A stretch of 64,000 nt of DNA from Candidatus Zhuqueibacterota bacterium (GCA_016929295.1 JAFGJB010000008.1:12917-76916); one strand, 5' to 3'. Counted from the stretch's first letter, positions 16,876-29,200 are shown. The notes: generated from the letters alone by a model not told the origin. Numbers and translations are program-made.

Positions 16876-19800
16876 ATGCTGGCAAAAGTTGAAAAAGTCT
16901 TGTCAAAAATAATGGGTGGATCGAGTAATGAACGCGAACTGAAGCGCCTGCAGCCGATCGTCGACGAGATCAACCAAATCGCTGCTGATTACGCGAAACT
17001 GACAGATGACGAGCTGAAAGCCAAAACGAACGAATTCCGCTATCGCCTTCTCATGGGAGAGACGCTGGATGATTTGCTGCCGGAAGCTTTTGCCGCGGTG
17101 AAGGATACGTGTCGGCGTCTGTGCGGCAAAAAATGGCTGGTGCGCGGTCAGGAAACAGACTGGAATATGATTCCATATGACGTTCAGCTGATCGGCGGCG
17201 TAGCGCTGCATGAAGGGAAAATCACGGAAATGGCAACGGGCGAAGGGAAGACGCTCGTCGCAACCATGCCTCTCTATCTGAATGCCCTGGCAGGCAAGGG
17301 CGCACATCTCATCACCGTGAACGATTATCTTGCTCAACGTGACTGCGAATGGATGGGCGAGATCTATAAATTTTTGGGGCTCTCGGTAGCCGCCATTTTT
17401 GGTCAGCAAGAGCCTGAGGAACGCAAGCGCGCCTACCAGGCCGATATTACTTATGGCACCAACAACGAGTTCGGATTTGATTATCTGCGCGATAATATGA
17501 CCGCGGATGTGTGGTCCGTGGTTCAACGTCCCCTGCACTTTGCTATTGTCGATGAGGTCGATAGTGTGCTCATTGATGAAGCCCGGACGCCTCTCATCAT
17601 CTCGGGCTCTGTCGGTGCACCACGGAATATCTATAATGAATTGAAACCCATCGTTGAAAATCTCTACAAAAAGCAGCAAGAGCTGGTCGTCCGCCTGATC
17701 AAAGAGGGTAAGGAACGACTCGAGCAGGACGAGGAGCAAGGGGGCCTGATGATACTGCGCGCACAGCGCGGGGATCCGAAAAATAGCCAGCTGCTGGAAT
17801 TGTTGACCTCTGAATTCTGGGTGAAAAAACTGATTGAAAGAATTCAAGGACAGTACGAGGTCAATAAGGATATGGCCACTGTCGACCAGGAACTCTATTA
17901 CACGATCGATGAAAAAAGCCATGTCGTCGATATAACCGAAAAAGGGCGCATATTTTTATCAGGCGGCCGCGATCAGGATGTCGCATTTAAAATTCAGCAA
18001 CTGGATGATCTGGACGAAATACTGTCGCGTCTCAGCGAGAGCAAGCAAAAATCACTCTACTTCACCCAGGATCCGGTGTCCGGCCGCTGCAACGGCCTCA
18101 GTTTTGCAGGTAAATTGGCGTTGAATAATGTTGCCGGCGACATAAATGAGCGCGACCGGGCTGCACTTGACGAGTTCGATGCCAGACTGCGACAGTTGCC
18201 CGATGTTGTGGAGAGAACCTCGCAGGAAAACAGGAGCGATCGAACATCAGCATGGCGGGCATTTTTCAGGATTGCCAAAAAAATGGAAAAGGCTGTCAAT
18301 GGCCTGACCGAGGAGGGAAAATCCTATCTGGCCAACGGACAAGATGGCGCCATGGCCAAACTGAGCGATTCTTTCGACAGACTTTTATCGACCATTTGCG
18401 CACAGGCGGATGTTGACAGCGGTCTGACGTTCCCGCGGCATCAACAAGAACGCCGGCGACTGCTGCAGGAGACTTTTTTTGAACTGGACAGACAACTGGG
18501 CATTCCTGTTGGTTTGACCGAGCAGGGTCGCATTGCCTTATTGGCCGACATGCTGGGAGGGGATCCATTGCGTGTACCGCTGATCTTTCAGCTTGACAAC
18601 ATGCTGCAGCTCGATGATGTCGATGACAAGATGCAGGATTATTTTGAATATTCCGATGACGGCACAGTGGTCAGACATATCGCGGAGAAAGGACGCATTG
18701 CGCTGCTCGGCGGTAACCCGGATACCTATGTTTTGCCGGATCGCAGCATCGTTGAGGAGCGGGACAGACAAATACAGCAGCTCTTGGACAGAACGATCAA
18801 TCAAACTTCCTACGATTATGCCGCACGAGTCATCGCCGTCGAACGCCTTGATCGCGACATGCGGGCTATTCATGATCTGCATGCGGCGGATGTGGAAAAA
18901 GCATCGCCTTTTTATATCATATCAAAATCAGAAGAGCGCCCGCGCATCCGTTTGACCGAAATGGGCCGCGCCTTTCTGTCCGATTTTGCAGCGCAAACCA
19001 CGGAGCTGGTGCTGCAGTTTGACAAACTTGTCCGCGACAATAAAAATCGCCTCGACGATATTTTCCAGGTGCAGAACAATAAAATTGTCGGCCTCAATTC
19101 GGCAGTGCTCGATCGTCTTCTCGGTCGATCTTTCAATGATCTGCAGCAAGCCATACGCGAATGGCACGCGCTGCATAAGGCGGGTGCTACTGATTCCAGC
19201 ATCAGCCTGCGTCTGGAATTGGACAAGTATCTCGGCAGCGACCAGGATGCCCGCAGCCTGTCGCGCACCTTCGAAGAGATCGAGCGCATTGCCCATGTCT
19301 ACAGTAACATTTTCGCCGTCATGCAGCGGCCAGATGTGAGCGACTCTGAAAAACGCCGCATTCTCGGTCGCTATTTTGAGTTTAACGGTGATCCAAAGGC
19401 TCCTTTCACGCAGGTGGATAATTTGCCGCTTGTCGGTCTGTCGGATGCCGGTATCGAACGCCTGGCAGGTGATGCCACGGCGCGGGCGCGCATATTTGAC
19501 AATCTGCAGGGGCTCGTCGATGATCTTGATGTTGATTCCGACGCAGTGTTTGAACTGTCAGAAGATGGTCATCCCGTGGGACTGAAAAAGTCTTCGTGGT
19601 CGCGACTTGTTGATGGTTTGCCATTTTTTAGCTACAGCGACGGACTGCGAAAATTTCGCGATGAGATCATGCATCTCTCTAATAAAAAGGTCAATTCCAG
19701 TTCTGAACTGGCGAGTCTGCTGCCAAAAGAAAAAACGCATCTACGGGCGAAAAAGCTCATGTTTGATGAACGTGAGCTGAATGAGTTGATTTCCATCGCC

Positions 19801-22800
19801 CATTCTCCATCGCGCGTTCTGACCGCCGAAGAAATCGAGCAGTGGTTCCGCTTGCAGTTTGAGCGTCAGCCCGGCCGTGTCCTGCAAGCCCGCCGGGATC
19901 GATTGTGGGCAAACTATCAGCAGGTTGAAGAGCGCATTCAGAATATATCACAACTGCTGCGGGCGTACACCCTCTATCACCGTGATGTCGAATATGTTGT
20001 CAAGACGCCGGAAGAAGGCGAGCTCCGCCGACACGGAGGAAGCCCGGGACAAAAGGCGGTCATGATTGTCGATAGTTTCACCGGACGTTTGATGCCGGGA
20101 CGACGATTCAGCGATGGCTTGCACGAGGCGCTCGAAGCCAAGGAGGGAGTTCAGGTTCAGGCGGAATCTCAAACATTGGCGACGATTACGCTGCAAAACT
20201 TTTTCAGATTGTATGATAAACTGGCCGGCATGACGGGCACTGCCGAAACCGAGGCGCAAGAGTTTTTCAGCACCTACAAACTCGAAGTGCTTGTCATTCC
20301 GACGAACGAGCCGGTCATTCGGATTGATCACAACGATGTCATATACCGCACACGACAGGAAAAGTTCAATGCCGTCATCGATGAAGCGCTTGAAATGCAC
20401 ACCAATGGCCGGCCGGTGTTGATCGGCACTATCTCCGTTGATGTCTCGCAACATCTCAGCAATCTCTTCGCTGCACGTGGCATTCCACTGGCCAACTGGC
20501 TGAAAAAAGGTGATGTGACCAAAGAACTCGAATCCGGTCGATTCCATACCGTGCTCAATGCCAAACATCACAAGAGCGAGGCCGAAATCGTCGCCAAGGC
20601 CGGATTGCCCGGCAGTATCACCATTGCCACCAATATGGCTGGTCGCGGCACGGACATCAAACTCAAAGAAGAAGTGGTCAAGAGAGGCGGTTTGCACATC
20701 ATCGGCTCTGAAAAGCACGAAGCACGGCGAATTGATCGACAGCTGCGCGGGCGCGCCGGTCGCCAGGGCGATCCGGGTTCATCCCGGTTTTATCTATCTC
20801 TTGAAGATGATCTCATGCGTCTCTTTGGTTCCGATCGCATCACAAATATCATGAGCAGCATGGGCTCGATGGAAGAGGGTGAACGCATCGAGCACAGCCT
20901 CATCACCCGATCCATCGAACGGGCGCAGAAAAAGGTCGAAGAGCGTAACTTTGAAATTCGTAAAAACCTGCTCGAATACGATGATGTGTTGAACGAACAG
21001 CGCAAGATCATCTACAAGCGGCGGCAAAATTTGCTCGGCTTTGCCCGCGCAGCGGACTATATCGAGTCCAAGTTGAAAAAGTTTGTCGAAGATGAGAATG
21101 ATCGCTCGACATGGAAATTGGCCGATTTGCTTGCTGATGTGCAAAAATACTTTGGCCGCTCGCCCGACGTGGCTGTTGATGAACTGGAACGACTCAAGTA
21201 TAGTGAACTTGCCGAGTTGCTGCAGGAGTGGGTCGCCGATCAGATTGAGGAGCGCCGCCATTTCAACCGGTTGCAAGAGCGGCACCGCATTTTTGGCTAT
21301 GCGTCCCCGGACGACGTGATCGAAAATCTCGTCAAATTGAAGATTCGACTCCACAGTGCCGGCACTACCGATACTTCGAAATGGAATGTTAAAGGCATCC
21401 GCTTCGAATTGGAACGAATTTTTAAAAAATCGCCGGATTGGCTGACGGGCGACCTGGGTCAGCACGCTCAGGTTGAAGATAGAATTAAAAAATGGGCGCG
21501 CGATGAATACGCCCAACAGATGTCCGAGGCGCGACAGGCAGTCGATGAAATTTTGCTTTCAGCCATTCCTTTCGACGATTTTCTGAATATTTTTGTCTTT
21601 GGTCTGATCAATTTGCATCTGCCGGCTGATCAGGCGCCGATCCATTGGCGCAGTGAAGAGTTTTTACGTGATCTCGAACGCATTTTCAATGCGCGGCCGA
21701 CCATCGGCCAAAACGAGATCAGATCCATTCGTCTCACAAAACTCGTCGCGATTCTTCGCGACTGGATTCAAACACTCGACCTGCCCCGTGATGAAACCGT
21801 CCTTCGCCATCGAATTGTGGGCTATTTTGGGCCGCTTCGATTGGTCGACGCCGTCATTGCAGAACGATTGTTTGAGCACGAGGCCGGCTCGGCGCAAGAA
21901 TTGACGACGGCCGATGCCGCCTATTTCAAAAGTTTATTCAATCACGATTTTCAGGTAGCGACCACCGGTCAAAATGAACGGCCGATCGTGCAGCTCTTCC
22001 GGCAGGCGCGCGAAGCCTATATGGCGCGCGTTCGCCATTCTCGCCAAGCTTATGACGACGCCATGATCGCCGGCGCGCTGTCAGAAGAGTTGATCGAAGC
22101 GGCGATCCATACCGTCATTGATGATATCTTGACATCCGCAGCAGATCAGACAGCGGCGCAGAAGGAACTGAGCTGGACGTTGGAAAATATGTTTCTGACC
22201 AAACCCATGATCTCCATACCGCAGCAGCGCGATGAGCAGACCATTGCCGTTTTTAAAGAAGATGTCGTCGCATGGGGGCATGCTTTTTATAAAATGTACT
22301 CCGATCGCATGGAGCGATTTCGCCAGGAAGAGTTGAGCAGCGAGATCGTCTCGGACTCGGTCATCGGCATGATCGACGACACGATCTATGCCATGATTGA
22401 CAATGTGCTCGGTGGGGATGATGTTCTTGACGCGGCGCAAATAAGTCGACTTGAGAGTGAATGCCGGCTGATTTTCCGGCAAACGCCCCGAATAGCAGAT
22501 GAGAGCTTGCAAGGTATGGATCCCAACAAAGTCATGGATCTGATCAGCGAATGGGCAAAAAATCTGTACTATCAACGTGTGCGAGAGCTGGGTCGAGAAC
22601 TGGTCACGCGAATGGAACGTTATTATGTCCTCGAAAAGATCGACGAAAATTGGCGTCAGCATCTGCACGGCGTGGACGAGCTCCGCGAAGGCATCGGCCT
22701 GCGAGGCTATGGCCAGAAAGATCCGCTGCTTGAATACAAGCGTGAGGCGTTTGTCATGTTCGAGCGTACCATTGACTCGATAAATCGAGAAACTGTGAGC

Positions 22801-23067
22801 ACATTGTTCAAGGTCTTTGATGTGGGGGGTGAAGTCGAAGAGCAGCAGTTGCGTCGCCTGGAGCCGCAAAGTTTCACAACATCGCACTCCCAGGTCGAGG
22901 TGTTCAGGCAGGTTATGTCCGAAAAGGCGCCGGCACGAAAACCAGCACCCGGCCCCACTGAACAAAGAACCCGCACGGTTGTCAAGACAAAGAGTGTGGG
23001 ACGAAACGAACCGTGTCCTTGTGGCAGCGGCAAAAAATACAAGAACTGCTGTGGCAGACATGTCTGA
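16876..23067 (+). CDS. secA: Preprotein translocase ATPase SecA, giant form (2063 aa) with large insertions
   Basis: Canonical NBD1 ([30 protein letters not shown]), NBD2 ([45 protein letters not shown]), IRA1 ([15 protein letters not shown]) and the C-terminal zinc motif [17 protein letters not shown]. About 660 extra aa lie between the [18 protein letters not shown] and [12 protein letters not shown], and about 400 extra aa lie in the helical wing domain. Confidence 0.9.
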
Positions 23068-23143: not shown

Positions 23144-23611
23144 ATGGAAAAAAGATTTCTTGACGTTCTCACCTTTGTGCTCAATGAAATCAGCGAAAAC
23201 ACCGACGGTGATTTAGATCTGCAAACCGTCATCGATGTGTTGCAGGATGAAGGTTACTCTGAAGATGAAATCTCTTCCGCCATGTCGTGGATCATGAATC
23301 ACGGGGATCCTTTGGACCGCATCACCACTGAACAAAAAAGCGATATCCCTCGCCCGGTTTGGCGCTCTTTGAATGATATCGAAGAAGAGACAATATCACC
23401 CAATGCCTATAGCTATCTCTTCCATTTACGCGAACTAAATATTTTGACCGATGATAATCTGGAAAAAGTCATCGATCGAGCTGTTGATTTACGGTTAACG
23501 CGCATGAGTGTTGAGGATATGAAAGATTTGGTGACGGCTGTCGTGCTAAATTTTGAGGACAGCGCCTCTAAAGGCTATTTTCAATTTACCGCTACCCGAT
23601 ATCCTCATTAA
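23144..23611 (+). CDS. smg: Smg family protein (DUF494)
   Basis: 155 aa. FLDVLTFVLNE and LQTVIDVLQDEGYSEDEISSAMSWI align to E. coli Smg FDVLMYLFE and [22 protein letters not shown]. It is adjacent to topA as at dprA-smg-topA loci. Confidence 0.7.
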   Translation: MEKRFLDVLTFVLNEISENTDGDLDLQTVIDVLQDEGYSEDEISSAMSWIMNHGDPLDRITTEQKSDIPRPVWRSLNDIEEETISPNAYSYLFHLRELNILTDDNLEKVIDRAVDLRLTRMSVEDMKDLVTAVVLNFEDSASKGYFQFTATRYPH

Positions 23612-23637
23612 ATCCCGTGCGCTCAAAGCCCTTGGAT

Positions 23638-25836
23638 ATGGCCAAATCGATTATATTAGTTGAATCACAACAAAAATTACGTACGCTACAATCGTATGTG
23701 GCCGATGATCATCACATCGTCAACATGAATGGCGCGATCGAGGATGCTGGAACTGAATATCTCCGGCATCTGCTCTTCAACCAGCCCGCCGAATTGGCTT
23801 TCTTGTCCGATAGCAAAATCGCCAGTCTGTCACAAATCATTCGTGACAGCGAAACGGTTCTACTCGCCACCTCACCCGATTACACCGGCGATGCCCTGGC
23901 GCGTCAAATCGTCAACGCCCTGCACCTCAAAGACAAGGACGTTCACCGACTCTTTTTACAGGCGATTTCGAAAAGAGAAGTGATCAAAGCGATTGGCGAG
24001 AAGCGAAACATACCCGCCGGCAGTGGCGCCTTGCTGGAAAAGTCTTTCGGAGTAGACAGCGCCTTCAACGACTATTTTCGCGATCTGATCAATTCGAAAA
24101 AAATAAAAAAACCCATTTTTAGCCTGGCCGCCGCATTGGCGCTTAGAAAAATATATGAAAATGATGCCGCGATGGCGAGCAGAACATCAACTTTGGCAAG
24201 TTCTCTTTGCATCCTTTTTAAGCGGCACGGCCGCTCTTTTACGGCGCGATTGAGCAAAATAAATGGCCAGACGCCGTCGATTGCCAATTCGCATGCGGCG
24301 AAAGCGATCATTTTTGATCTAAAAGAACAAAAGTACAAGATTGATCGGTTGTCGGACAGCACCATCACAACTGCACCGCCGCTGCCGTTCACAACAGCAA
24401 AATTGATCGCTGCAGCTGAAACACACCTTGGTTTTTCGCCTCGACAAACCTGCAGCATCGCCCGTTCTCTCTACAATGGTTGCGATATCGGACAGAAAAA
24501 GCCGGTTGGACTCATCACTTATCCGATAACGGATTCATTGTTCATCCCCGAGCAGGACCTATTGTCTGCCCGGGAGTTCATTATGGTGAATTATGGCAAA
24601 GCATACGTGCCGGAAAAGCCCCGCCTCTATTCAGATGCGTCATATTCTGCGTTCAGCGTTATTCGTCCCACCGCGCCATCGCGAACGCCTAAAAAATTGA
24701 AAAAGCATCTCGCCGACGGACCCTTTCAACTTTATGATCTCATTTGGAAACGCTTCCTGGCATCGCAAATGACAGATTCGACCATGGCGCATCGAAAAGT
24801 GTACATCACCGCAGGACCGCAAAAGGCCTATGTTTTTCGACTTGAACAAATCCAAACGATGGGCCGGGGATATCTGCAGCTCTTTCCGCAGACAGAGAAC
24901 CAAACGTCATTTTTATTTTCACAAGAATGGCAAAAGAATGGCGAAATCATCCCTTGTGATTATAAATATGTTGTCGAACAGCACAAGTCAGATTTTTATT
25001 ATACTGAAGGCAGATTGTTGGAAGCATTGGGCGATTTGGATGTGTGCATGATCGAGACGCTCGAGTACATACCCGATATTTTGCGCGAGTGGAAATTTGT
25101 CCGCCAAACTGCTGACGGCAAATTATATCCGACGCGACCGGGAAAGACTGCCTGCGAGTTGCTGCAACGGCGCTATCCGGATATTCTGAATGAACGGTTC
25201 ATACGCCAGCAAAAAGCAAAGTTATTTATGCTGGAGAACGGAAAAAAGAATATCGATCCTGTGGCTGAAATCACAAAATTATTACAACATCCGGCACGAC
25301 CGACAATGGAGGACCAGGCAGCAGATGGCGCCGTGAAAAAAACCAACAGCAAATGTCCTGTTTGTGGTGGCTCGATGCTGCAAAAAAGCAGCTCATCCGG
25401 TGACTATATGGTCTGTGAATTTTATCCCGATAACTGCCAGTACAGCAAATCGATTCATCCTCACCTGCATCGCTATTATGGGCGCTGCGATGACTGCCAT
25501 GCTGAACTGACTGTTAAAATCGGCCGTTATGGTCGATTCCTGGCGTGTTCTGCTTTTCCAAAATGCAAGTTCACCAGGCCATTTCCGACTGGCGCCAAAT
25601 GTCCCAGAGAAGGCTGCGAGGGAGATGTGATAGAACGGATCACAAAAACGGGTCGACTTTTTTACGGATGCAGCTTATTCCCGCACTGCAAATTTTCATC
25701 CTGGCAAATGCCGGTGAACATTGCCTGTCCAAAGTGCGGCAATCTCTATTTGACATTAAAAAACAGCGATGCTTTTGACGTTTATCAATGTCCCAAGTGC
25801 AAGACTGAATTTGACGCCAATCTGGCGGAAAAATGA
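23638..25836 (+). CDS. topA: Type IA DNA topoisomerase I homologue with four C-terminal C4 zinc ribbons; several catalytic-site residues diverge
   Basis: Toprim [14 protein letters not shown] and [11 protein letters not shown] versus E. coli IYLATDLDREGE. Active-site [10 protein letters not shown] versus GYITYMRTDS. IRP and [14 protein letters not shown] are conserved. An alternative GTG start is at 23617. Confidence 0.75.
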
Positions 25837-26771
25837 TCATGCCCGTCACAGCATTTAATATCGCGACGTGGATTCCGAGATTTGTGCGATTTTTACAAGT
25901 CGAACGGCACGACTCGGAAAATACATGTGCGGCCTATGAAACTGACCTGTTTCAATTTAATGATTATTTGGCGCAACGATTTAAAACAGAGCAACCGGAA
26001 TTTGCCCACTTTACCAAAGAATCGGTGCGGGGATATCTCGGCTATTTGACCGGATTGAAATACTCCGCCCGCAGTCTCGCGCGCAAATTGGCCTGCTTGC
26101 GCGCATTCTCCAAATACTTGATTCGTGAAGATGTCCTTGCCGTGAATCCAACGCTCAACATTGCCACCCCAAAGATAAAAAAGAAACTGCCCGGCTTTCT
26201 CAGCGCGCAACAGGTGAAAGCATTACTGCAATTGCCAAACGTCGCAAGACCGCAGGGATTGCGCGACTATATGATCCTCGAGCTTTTTTACGCCACCGGC
26301 ATGCGCGTCAGTGAACTCGCTTCCCTAAAGCTGGAGAATATTCGCCATGACGAAGGCGTCTTTCGTATTCGGGGCAAGGGGAATAAAACGCGGCTGGTGC
26401 CAATGGGGCATCGTGTTGCCCGAGATCTGCAAGTCTATTTGAAAATGCGCCAAGAAGAAGAAAAAGCTGCGCTGGAATTTAAGGATTTTATCTTTGTTAA
26501 TAGTAATAAGGAGCCATTCACGAGAGGGCAAATTGCCGCAATCGTTCATGGCTATATAAAACGCATAGCCGGCAAAGAAATGGCACATCCACACACGTTG
26601 CGTCATACATTTGCCACGCATCTGCTCAATGAGGGCGCAGATTTGATGTCCGTAAAAGAACTTTTAGGGCACTCCAGTTTGAGTACAACACAGATCTACA
26701 CGCATGTTTCTGCCGAGCATCTCAAAAAAATATATAAAAAAGCTCATCCGCGAGCGAACAGCGAAGGGTGA
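25833..26771 (+). CDS. xerC: Tyrosine site-specific recombinase XerC/XerD
   Basis: 312 aa. The N-terminal core-binding domain contains [20 protein letters not shown]. Catalytic motifs are [20 protein letters not shown] and [12 protein letters not shown]...[17 protein letters not shown] 4-nt overlap with topA in a chromosomal context suggests it is not a phage integrase. Confidence 0.85.
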
Positions 26772-26860
26772 TCGGAGAATTCACACTAAAAGAGGAGGTG
26801 ACGGGCAATAGGACACACTATTTAATTGCGGGCAACTTGAATATTTACAAGGAGGTTCCT

Positions 26861-27196
26861 ATGAGGATTTCATTCACTGCGAGACATTTTAAATCATCGG
26901 ACCGACTCAAAGATTTCGCAATAACTGAGGTGCAACGCTTGAAGAAATACTATGATGATATCCTTGATGTCGAGATCATTCTGGATTATATCAAACAGGA
27001 GCAGGTTGCCGAGATTGTTGTCAAGGTCTTTGGGCAGAGATTGACTGTGGTTGAAAAGAGTGAAGATATGTACAAATCTATTACTCTCGCTGTGGATAAA
27101 TTGGAACGCAAATTAGTGAAATATAAGCAAAAACTGCGACATTTTAACAAAGAGCGCATCGCCGAGAACATAGAACCAGAACTCGAACTTGATTAG
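26861..27196 (+). CDS. hpf: Ribosome hibernation-promoting factor / sigma-54 modulation protein (HPF/RaiA)
   Basis: 111 aa from the ATG at 26861, with AAGGAGG 6 nt upstream. N-terminus MRISFTARHFKSSDRLKDFAITEVQRLKKYYDDILDVEI. The longer ORF-track start at 26768 is unlikely. Confidence 0.85.
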   Translation: MRISFTARHFKSSDRLKDFAITEVQRLKKYYDDILDVEIILDYIKQEQVAEIVVKVFGQRLTVVEKSEDMYKSITLAVDKLERKLVKYKQKLRHFNKERIAENIEPELELD

Positions 27197-28300
27197 ATGG
27201 AGCAGAGAGAGCGGGGAGCGTTATCGCGCTCCCTGCTCTTCATTGCGTATAAACTTATGTCAATAGAAACGAAAAGGGTCTACAAGACAATTCTCGATGC
27301 CAAGCAGCCCAAAGCTATTGGTTACCTTAAGGTTAGCGATTTGTATGAACAAACCCAAGATCGGCTCCATTTGCGCATCGTCAATGATCAATATTCTTTT
27401 GACCGCCGAATTGAGCAAAAGGAATTGAATCGACCAGGTCTGGCGCTCAGTGGTTTCGTGGAAGTTTTTACCTACTGGCGTGTGCAGCTCATGGGGAATA
27501 CCGAGATCGGTTACCTGAATACGCTGCACGGTGATGAACGGATCAGGGCCATTTCCAATGTTCTTGATTTTGATTTGCCCTGCATCATTGTCACAAATGA
27601 TAATTTGATCCCGGTGGAGCTGGTTGAAATTGCCAACCAGCGCAAGATCACGCTATTTGCAACACCCGATAATACGACGTTTGTGCATCGGCACTTGAGT
27701 GAGCACCTGGAGCGCGCTTTTGCTCCGCATACAGTTGTCCATGGTTCACTGGTGGATGTGTTCAGCGTCGGTGTGCTCTTTGTCGGTCCGGCTGCAATCG
27801 GCAAGAGTGAGTTGGCGCTTGACTTGATCGAGCGGGGACACCAATTGGTCGCTGATGATGCTGTTCAAATTAAAAAGACCGGGGTCAACACGCTGCAGGG
27901 CGCTCCCAGGGGGAGTATCGGCCATCATATGGAAATCAGGGGCCTTGGAATCATCGACGTTTTTAAAATGTTCGGCGTGCGCGGAATTCGTGGAAGCAAG
28001 GATATTCATGTTATTGTCAAACTGGAAAAGTTTGGTGAAAATGCCAATTACGAACGAACCGGCCTGGACGAAATCTACACCCAAATTCTGGGAGTTGATA
28101 TTCCACTCGTCGAATTGCCGGTCATGGAAGGAAAGAATTTGACAATCGTCGCAGAGGCGATTGCCCTTGATCAAAAATTGAAACAGATCGGCATAAAGCA
28201 AGCACACCAGTTCAACCAACATTTGATGCTAAAGAACATCTCAACTCAAAAGGCAGCGGAACAGGCGCCGGAAATAATGCTCGATATAGAGGATATTTGA
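27197..28300 (+). CDS. hprK: HPr kinase/phosphorylase
   Basis: Walker A GPAAIGKSELALDLIERGHQLVADD and MEIRGLGIIDV. An alternative start MSIETK lies 21 codons downstream. Confidence 0.9.
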   Translation: MEQRERGALSRSLLFIAYKLMSIETKRVYKTILDAKQPKAIGYLKVSDLYEQTQDRLHLRIVNDQYSFDRRIEQKELNRPGLALSGFVEVFTYWRVQLMGNTEIGYLNTLHGDERIRAISNVLDFDLPCIIVTNDNLIPVELVEIANQRKITLFATPDNTTFVHRHLSEHLERAFAPHTVVHGSLVDVFSVGVLFVGPAAIGKSELALDLIERGHQLVADDAVQIKKTGVNTLQGAPRGSIGHHMEIRGLGIIDVFKMFGVRGIRGSKDIHVIVKLEKFGENANYERTGLDEIYTQILGVDIPLVELPVMEGKNLTIVAEAIALDQKLKQIGIKQAHQFNQHLMLKNISTQKAAEQAPEIMLDIEDI

Positions 28301-28695
28301 TGAAATACGGTGTAGTAATCGCACATGGACCATTAGGTGCGGCATTCATAGAGGCCGCCGCGTCGATCATGGGAAAAACCGAAGGGCTTTTTCCGCTCTC
28401 TGTCACGGATATGTCGATACAGGAGATCGAAGCACGCCTAAGGGCCATTGTCAACGAGCCATGCGAAAATGTTGACGCCATCATCATCATGGCCTGTTTG
28501 CGTGGCGGAAGTTCCTGGAATGTGAGCGCCGCCGTCACAAAAGGCCTGGATCGTGTTCGACTTGTCTCGGGCTTGAACCTTGCCATGTTGCTGACTTTTC
28601 TGCTCAAACGGGAGATGCTTTCTCTCGACGATCTGGTGGATGAAATGAAAAAAGAGGCTGCAAAAGGGATTACATCCTTGGACTTTAATCGCTAG
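28300..28695 (+). CDS. PTS EIIA component, mannose/fructose/sorbose family
   Basis: GVVIAHGPLGAAFIEAAASIMG with the phospho-His near position 9. The ATG overlaps the hprK stop (TGATG). Confidence 0.75.
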   Translation: MKYGVVIAHGPLGAAFIEAAASIMGKTEGLFPLSVTDMSIQEIEARLRAIVNEPCENVDAIIIMACLRGGSSWNVSAAVTKGLDRVRLVSGLNLAMLLTFLLKREMLSLDDLVDEMKKEAAKGITSLDFNR

Positions 28696-28714
28696 AATGC
28701 GGGAGACAGATGAG

Positions 28715-29200
28715 ATGCCGTTGGTGATGATACGAATTGATGACCGCCTCATTCATGGTCAGGTTGTCGTCGGCTGGGGGAGTGTTCTGAAACCAGATCG
28801 AATATTGTTGTCGAGTGACGACGTGGCAACTGTTGAGTGGCAACGAACCATTTATTTATCAGCGGTGCCGGAATCATTACATGCCTCTGTTCTCACCCTG
28901 GAAGATTCGATTAAAGCTCTGACATCCGCCGATTTTGGCGACGAAAAAGTGTTGCTGCTCGTAGATTCACCTAAAAGCATCATTTTTTTCGTCGAGAACG
29001 GAGTTGACATCAAGGAAGTGAATGTCGGGGGTATGCATTTCAAACCAGGCAAGAATCAAATTGCGCCTTTCATTTTTGTGGATAAAGAGGATGTAGCCAA
29101 TTTCAAAATATTGTGCGAGAAGGGCATCAAACTCGAAGGACGCGACGTGCCAACGCGCTCACCCGTCGACATCTGCGCCGTATTGGGCTTCAAGGAATGA
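28715..29200 (+). CDS. PTS EIIB component, mannose/sorbose family
   Basis: EIIB-Man signature MIRIDDRLIHGQVVVGW. GGGAG SD 9 nt upstream of the ATG at 28715. No IIC/IID follows. Confidence 0.75.
   Translation: MPLVMIRIDDRLIHGQVVVGWGSVLKPDRILLSSDDVATVEWQRTIYLSAVPESLHASVLTLEDSIKALTSADFGDEKVLLLVDSPKSIIFFVENGVDIKEVNVGGMHFKPGKNQIAPFIFVDKEDVANFKILCEKGIKLEGRDVPTRSPVDICAVLGFKE

Follow-up and report, generated by a model that had tools for sequence, protein, structure and literature searches.

Type IA topoisomerases are considered to be universal enzymes with a strictly conserved set of active-site residues. In bacterial TopA the hallmark residues supply the nucleophile, the transition-state arginine, the Mg2+ ligands, a proton relay and the contacts to the G strand, and single laboratory mutants of the catalytic residues are inactive or dominant-lethal (PMC7587558). 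The C-terminal domains of Escherichia coli TopA bind single-stranded DNA (ssDNA), and ssDNA binding by the homologous protein YrdD is Zn-dependent (PMC4678816). A pseudoenzyme is defined by a conserved fold, lost catalytic motifs and purifying selection (PMC5106787, PMC10211241); no description of a type IA pseudo-topoisomerase was found in the literature searched. Here we report on a TopA-like gene in a 64,000-nucleotide stretch of a Candidatus Zhuqueibacterota (candidate division KSB1) metagenome-assembled genome, or MAG (GCA_016929295.1, JAFGJB010000008.1:12917-76916; the whole stretch is called the window). The gene is quite probably the positional orthologue of topA in one KSB1 sublineage, where, to judge by its sequence, it has lost the chemistry of strand cleavage and religation and persists as a pseudoenzyme.

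The TopA-like gene has smg upstream and xerC downstream, the order recognized in a first-pass annotation of the window; the dprA-smg adjacency that it also invoked does not occur here, as secA precedes smg. The three genes are closely spaced, all on the + strand, and the start of xerC overlaps the stop of the TopA-like gene as ATGA. Judged by gene spacing, smg, the TopA-like gene and xerC would form an operon, and scans of the locus for promoters and terminators gave no enrichment over shuffled sequences. The open reading frame (ORF) called mechanically begins at GTG 23617 and encodes 739 amino acids (aa). As all orthologues start with MAKS(L/I)I(L/I)VES, we take ATG 23638 as the real start (732 aa); the ORF noted in the first-pass annotation is present. 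The protein is annotated in its source, a candidate division KSB1 MAG, as 'topoisomerase DNA-binding C4 zinc finger domain-containing protein'. The features of the locus are as follows.

23144 to 23611, + strand: smg (DUF494; Pfam E = 2.4e-16), upstream operon partner
23638 to 25836, + strand: TopA-like putative pseudo-topoisomerase, 732 aa, ATG start at 23638 (NCBI MBN1558665.1)
23638 to 24012, + strand: degenerate Toprim-like domain D1 (aa 1-125), below the Pfam threshold; E9 and K13 kept, His33 replaced by Ala
23872 to 23886, + strand: remnant of the DxDxE motif, S79-P-D81-Y-T83, equivalent to E. coli D111-L-D113-R-E115
24013 to 25332, + strand: D2-D4 scaffold (aa 126-565) with R168S, R169F, R195L, Q197A, and DVCMIETL for GIGRPSTY
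24508 to 24537, + strand: putative former active-site motif [10 protein letters not shown] (E. coli GYITYMRTDS); Tyr295 codon TAT at 24520-24522
24649 to 24669, + strand: AFSVIRP (E. coli AHEAIRP), His365 to Phe and Glu366 to Ser in the alignments
25354 to 25800, + strand: four C4 zinc ribbons (Pfam Zn_ribbon_Top1), the best-preserved part relative to canonical TopA
25833 to 26771, + strand: xerC/xerD-type tyrosine recombinase (TIGR02224, 321.8 bits; TIGR02225, 319.5 bits)

The type IA signature and the four C4 ribbons seen in the first-pass annotation were recovered by Pfam (Topoisom_bac, E = 2e-42; Zn_ribbon_Top1, E = 4e-27), with ribbon cysteines at 573/576/593/600, 617/620/637/643, 655/660/678/684 and 697/700/718/721. 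The Toprim score of 21.8 bits fell below the 23.1-bit Pfam cut-off, and the topA_bact equivalog model TIGR01051 likewise scored below its cut-off (251 against 456.4 bits). Residue correspondences were checked in three ways: by phmmer against Protein Data Bank entry 6ozw, by MAFFT L-INS-i with E. coli TopA (NC_000913.3), and in a 66-sequence alignment. Three of the motif readings in the first-pass annotation stood. ATDLDREGE is ATSPDYTGD, with D111S and E115T and with D113 kept as D81; the active-site motif keeps the Tyr319 equivalent as Tyr295 beside M320P and R321I; and AHEAIRP is AFSVIRP, with H365F and E366S. The fourth, GHIRDL read as HHIVNM, was a by-eye alignment that had shifted: GHIRDL corresponds to GAIEDA, which lies seven residues further downstream, and His33 is lost either way.

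The alignments also revealed more catalytic losses than had been listed. R168 and R169 are replaced by S and F, G194, R195 and Q197 of the SAGRVQS motif by S, L and A (segment SLAA), and GIGRPSTY by DVCMIETL. Only Asp172 and Thr496 are retained from the G-strand-binding set, the remainder reading S, S, L, A and DVCMIETL. Altogether 7 of 20 hallmark residues are left (E9, K13, D113, D172, Y319, D323 and T496). Since about 110 diverse cluster representatives of canonical TopA keep 19-20 of the 20, these losses are not attributable to chance.

We searched for related proteins with a word-indexed protein search, which returned nine close relatives (P0002-P0010) that were 38-68% identical, followed by canonical TopAs at about 30%. 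A Pfam Toprim match was missing in all nine, and in P0002, P0008 and P0009 the Toprim domain is wholly absent, either deleted or replaced. The active-site motifs of the ten closest orthologues are as follows.

P0001, P0003 and P0005: [10 protein letters not shown], Tyr at 319
P0007 and P0010: GLITYPV(S/T)DS, Tyr at 319
P0004 and P0006: GLITNPVSDS, Asn at 319
P0008 and P0009: (G/L)LITSP(V/I)TDS, Ser at 319
P0002: ELITCPITDS, Cys at 319

Half of these ten proteins (5/10) thus carry Asn, Ser or Cys at the tyrosine position. Around that position the residues L, I, T, P, D, S and L do not vary within the clade. At the position itself Y, N, S or C occurs; every alternative to Tyr is one base away from TAT, and the Asn and Ser codons recur in independent assemblies. 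The position of His365 is occupied by F, L or S. Sister species can do without the nucleophilic tyrosine, and even without the Toprim domain as a whole.

We ran a profile exhaustively against 1.84 billion cluster representatives and tabulated the hallmarks of the hits. About 32 representatives (of 50% identity clusters) keep 0-12 of the 20 hallmarks, and their residue at position 319 is Y, H, F, N, C, S or L. Therefore, the degenerate family is much larger and more diverse than its first ten members. The new members that came from a metagenome scan (L014, L027, L032 and L045) were all partial. The ORF is intact and full-length in every degenerate member, across a deep clade in which HprK is 57% identical between the extremes.

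Several side observations concern the same position. In distant degenerate members (P0381, P0383, P0384, P0387, P0388, P0392, P0396 and P0402) a Tyr stands one position past the canonical site, in motifs such as ISFYKT, ISNYLT, ITFYLT and ITYYKS, where the clade of the window protein has Pro; this could be coincidence or a migrated residue. Isolated active-site changes were seen in otherwise canonical TopA representatives, namely P0450 (Y319F and H365S) and P0488 (Y319N), and P0459 and P0512 keep 14 and 11 of the 20 hallmarks, respectively. These four may reflect further lineages that lost activity independently, or errors in sequencing. P0003 and P0004 are annotated by JGI as 'DNA topoisomerase-1', which is misleading for such genes.

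Selection was assessed in the triad P0004, P0006 and P0007, two of which have Asn in place of Tyr. The proportion of nonsynonymous differences (pN) was 0.12-0.14, compared to 0.63-0.66 for synonymous differences (pS), and the nonsynonymous to synonymous rate ratio (dN/dS) was ~0.09-0.10, a value that is approximate with dS near saturation (~1.4). The ratio was the same as for smg and xerC. The TopA-like gene is under purifying selection and is not decaying. Within the lineage, the TopA-like protein is 55-60% identical and its neighbours 67-85%; compared to P0010, these values are 37% and 67-82%. In comparison with the canonical lineages, identity is 50% for SecA and 52% for HprK but falls to 32% for TopA, whereas canonical KSB1 TopAs are 65% identical among themselves. 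The gap in identity between the neighbours and the TopA-like protein therefore indicates that this gene was specifically accelerated.

Constraint was measured over the 140 alignment columns that are at least 93% conserved among 56 canonical TopAs, as the share of cells retained in the clade. Retention was 98% in the zinc ribbons, 43% in Toprim and 39% in D2-D4, and all 16 zinc-ligand cysteines are invariant in the clade. Replacements fixed in the clade include Q276R, G468D, G470C, S473E and E526K. The domains of canonical KSB1 TopAs rank D3 > D1 > D2/D4 > Zn in conservation, and those of the degenerate crown group, within which D3 is 75% identical, rank D3 > Zn > D1 and the rest. The suggestion in the first-pass annotation of a catalytically impaired, topoisomerase-derived DNA-binding protein is supported, and more strongly than that annotation could show, by a tyrosine that is not conserved in orthologues, three orthologues without Toprim, and the tightest relative constraint in the ribbons.

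Two other features were examined and set aside. A 'new basic patch', TPKKxKKYL, follows IRP and was rejected as a gain of function because canonical KSB1 TopAs share it. The higher net positive charge of D2-D4 (+12 versus +4.5) was not used, as it lies within ~1 standard deviation of canonical TopAs.

Gene order was compared among the degenerate loci that could be read (the window, L001/L002, L003, L004, L122, L123, L124, L125 and L126). The order at these loci is (recJ-ilvE-nusB-)secA-smg-X-xerC-hpf-hprK-PTS, in which X is the TopA-like gene and PTS stands for phosphotransferase system genes, and in every KSB1 locus examined smg adjoins topA or the TopA-like gene. Canonical KSB1 TopAs (P0196, P0349 and ~25 further loci from two collection scans) fill the identical nusB-secA-smg-topA-xerC-hpf-hprK slot. 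The TopA-like gene is therefore a positional orthologue and not an extra paralogue. No canonical KSB1-type TopA lay outside the smg-xerC slot among those retrieved, so none of these had relocated.

In a neighbour-joining tree of concatenated HprK, HPF and XerC (689 columns), all nine degenerate-bearing loci included formed one clade, apart from 26 canonical-bearing loci. The first of them to branch, L126, encodes an intermediate protein, P0386, which keeps 12 of the 20 hallmarks: the Toprim DxDxE, His33, R168/R169 and R195 are intact, and Y319F, R321L and H365S have occurred. One origin is thus tentatively indicated, with the active site of domain 3 the first to fail, decay of Toprim and of the G-strand contacts next, and deletion of Toprim as a last step in some branches. 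The order of losses is tentative because the tree carries no support values and L126 is a contig of poor quality. At 5777-6836 of L126, xerC is broken up into three short ORFs, and small ORFs also lie after secA; the fragmented xerC reflects either low-quality assembly or real gene decay.

The structure of the window protein was predicted with AlphaFold2 from the 66-sequence alignment, with a mean predicted local distance difference test score (pLDDT) of 88 and a predicted template modelling score (pTM) of 0.73. Foldseek matched this model to full-length E. coli TopA (4rul_A, E = 8.5e-45), and template modelling (TM) scores to the 67-kDa cores of E. coli and Streptococcus mutans TopA (1CY0 and 6OZW) were 0.82-0.85. 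The model predicts that the toroidal D1-D4 fold of type IA enzymes is likely kept.

We propose that the protein would no longer cleave or relax DNA. Its retained function may be ssDNA binding, principally via the zinc ribbons, and the conserved domain-3 surface probably adds to nucleic-acid binding. The protein might act at unwound DNA together with Smg and XerC, or with RNA polymerase, and its catalytic job would have passed to another topoisomerase, encoded at a different place in the genome. Substitution of R321 or D111 in an otherwise active, still-cleaving enzyme is dominant-lethal through accumulation of cleavage complexes (PMC7587558). As R321I and D111S are tolerated here, cleavage is presumably off, even in members that have the tyrosine. 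With a homologous fold, lost catalytic motifs and purifying selection, the protein would be a pseudoenzyme in the operational sense. Neither the TopA-like protein nor Smg matched the PADLOC library of defence systems.

Several points weigh against this proposal. The window protein retains Tyr295, Glu9, Lys13, the Asp113 equivalent D81 and Asp323, and residual or altered chemistry, for example on RNA, may persist in this particular member. The alignment behind the confident AlphaFold2 model is dominated by canonical TopAs; prediction from ten clade sequences alone gave a pLDDT of 54 and a pTM of 0.33 and was uninformative, with a similar pattern of secondary structure. The neighbour-gene tree is midpoint-rooted as well as without support values, and the dN/dS values carry the near-saturation of dS given above. 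The role and partners (Smg, XerC or RNA polymerase) are drawn from gene adjacency only, and both the loss of activity and DNA binding are predictions from sequence. Lastly, partial scans found no second type IA topoisomerase for the carrier genomes.

Could the protein instead be an unusual but active type IA topoisomerase, as the first-pass annotation had also allowed? Such an enzyme might bind Mg2+ through E9, D81 and D85 and use Tyr295 as its nucleophile; Lys13 and Asp323/Ser324 are also kept, the fold is predicted to be a full toroid, and another topA was not found in the partial scans of carrier genomes. However, purifying selection acts equally on orthologues whose Tyr has become Asn, Ser or Cys, and three orthologues have no Toprim. 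R321, H365, R168/R169, R195 and Q197, strictly conserved in the ~110 canonical representatives, are all gone, and changes at R321 and D111 are dominant-lethal in an enzyme that still cleaves (PMC7587558). The alignments did not support an active enzyme, which we consider very unlikely. Another reading is a decaying relic kept only for its operon position, for example for translational coupling to xerC. The gene is the fastest evolving of its neighbourhood, domain loss is under way in some lineages, and an ORF upstream of xerC could be favoured by the stop/start overlap; yet L003, L122 and L123 have no such overlap and still carry an intact gene. A relic is also hard to reconcile with intact full-length ORFs in every lineage of a deep clade, with a pN far below pS and equal to that of smg and xerC, with retention of 16/16 zinc-ligand cysteines and 98% of ribbon hallmark cells, or with a D3 that is 75% identical in the crown group, and we regard it as highly improbable.

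A different question is whether the gene descends from the topA of this slot or is a divergent paralogue or xenologue that replaced it. The protein is only ~30% identical to canonical KSB1 TopAs, no nearer than to the TopAs of other phyla, and its long branches make a tree of the protein itself unreliable. Replacement nevertheless seems quite unlikely: slot and neighbours are the same in every case, and the first-branching P0386 is an intermediate with 12/20 hallmarks and a fully canonical Toprim. In addition, the protein has the C-terminal motifs VK[IV]GRYGRF, FP[KR]C[KT]FT[KR]P and GCxG[DE]VIER in common with KSB1-type canonical TopAs, and scans with these motifs retrieved such TopAs. All members come from metagenomes or MAGs, and genes adjoining that of P0386 in L126 are fragmented, so an assembly or binning artefact, or MAG sequencing error, was also considered. 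The same substitutions occur in independent assemblies and sources (NCBI RQOH01 and JAFGKD01, Logan, ENA and JGI), which leaves an artefact with a negligible probability. In-situ descent of a pseudoenzyme from topA is our preferred explanation.

A replacement enzyme able to relax DNA very probably exists in the carrier genomes. A scan of genome contigs of CAYSNA01 and JAFGKD01 found the degenerate copy only; it used two C-terminal peptide patterns on incomplete MAGs, and absence is not established by it. The canonical TopAs named as KSB1 in two protein searches fell in accession blocks unrelated to MBN1558665, MBN1482677 and RQW02692. It is unlikely that a deep KSB1 sublineage (HprK ~57% identical) lives without any functional topoisomerase I. 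Such a reading would fit the catalytic loss in the orthologue of the ancestral slot, and no relocated or foreign topA was seen in the scans. If it were true, negative supercoiling would be controlled by topoisomerase III, a type IB enzyme, an altered gyrase or something else, and a working TopA would no longer be a rule for all bacteria. The family thus raises a concrete question, namely which enzyme relaxes negative supercoils in these bacteria.

Beyond the three genes, the window has a 2063-aa SecA upstream of smg, and hpf, hprK and a PTS EIIA/EIIB pair downstream of xerC.

16876 to 23067, + strand: giant secA, 2063 aa, twice the canonical KSB1 SecA (~1060 aa)
26768 to 27196, + strand: hpf (Ribosomal_S30AE), listed from GTG 26768 with 142 aa, overlapping the xerC stop
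28297 to 29200, + strand: PTS EIIA-man/EIIB-sorb pair, directly 3' of hprK

The giant SecA has insertions at ~aa 363-1005, near the preprotein cross-linking domain, and at ~aa 1427-1814, in the scaffold/wing region; neither insertion gave a Pfam domain. It is real and conserved, as L003, L124 and L125 carry a collinear SecA with 69-74% identity. The SecA of L126, the first-branching degenerate-TopA locus, is apparently of normal size, and the SecA expansion therefore came after TopA inactivation. The true start of hpf is probably ATG 26858, since its orthologues are 110-115 aa long. The PTS pair directly follows hprK in every degenerate-TopA locus (L001, L003, L004 and L123-L126) and not in the canonical KSB1 loci L007 and L009/L010, and is a lineage marker. 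Some KSB1-type MAG records are labelled 'uncultured Cytophagia bacterium' (L061, CAYSNA010000032.1; L069; L092) or 'uncultured Deferribacteres' (L063/L064). Their gene order and sequence are those of KSB1/Zhuqueibacterota, and these labels are probably wrong.

Compared with bacterial TopA (type IA; TIGR01051; 4RUL, 1ECL and 6OZW), the window protein occupies the same smg-topA-xerC slot and has the same domain order of a Toprim-like D1, D2-D4 and four C4 zinc ribbons. Unlike TopA, it is without D111, E115, H33, R168, R169, R195, Q197, M320, R321, H365, E366 and GIGRPSTY, and in the degenerate family at large the nucleophilic Tyr is not conserved and Toprim is dispensable. The family breaks the pattern of strict conservation: an orthologue in the ancestral operon, apparently without the chemistry, has long been retained with its ribbons and domain 3 under selection. 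Positions changed in engineered topoisomerase I mutants of E. coli and Yersinia pestis (Y319F, R321, D111N and E9A/Q) are changed naturally here: P0386 combines Y319F, R321L and H365S with a Toprim and D4 that are otherwise canonical, and the window protein has D111S, R321I and H365F. In contrast to single laboratory mutants, the natural proteins combine many changes that are tolerated under purifying selection. They could therefore serve as a natural separation-of-function allele series for roles of TopA beyond cutting, such as ssDNA sensing or partnership with RNA polymerase or with Xer and Smg. Unlike pseudoenzymes that are spare paralogues, the KSB1 pseudo-TopA would be an orthologue in its ancestral slot.

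The nearest parallel is E. coli YrdD ('putative DNA topoisomerase', 180 aa), a homologue of the TopA C-terminus that, like the window gene, adjoins smg; the E. coli order is smf-smg-yrdD, with topA elsewhere in the genome. YrdD aligned by BLASTP to window residues 568-700, the ribbons (E = 2e-19). It has no D1-D4, whereas the window protein keeps the full-length scaffold (732 aa) with a well-conserved D3, and the Toprim-less KSB1 orthologues resemble a partial step toward the YrdD-like state. YrdD coexists with a functional topA in E. coli, whereas partial scans found none for the KSB1 carriers. The first-pass annotation had offered, as one of three readings, an intermediate toward a yrdD-like remnant. 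Gene order and the ribbon alignment make this a good analogy, but YrdD and the KSB1 family belong to different phyla and have independent origins, so the two are parallel events rather than stages of one lineage. By this analogy, the KSB1 family is best read as a full-length analogue of YrdD that arose independently at the same smg locus, and such an independent parallel to a poorly understood protein suggests a recurrent evolutionary route.

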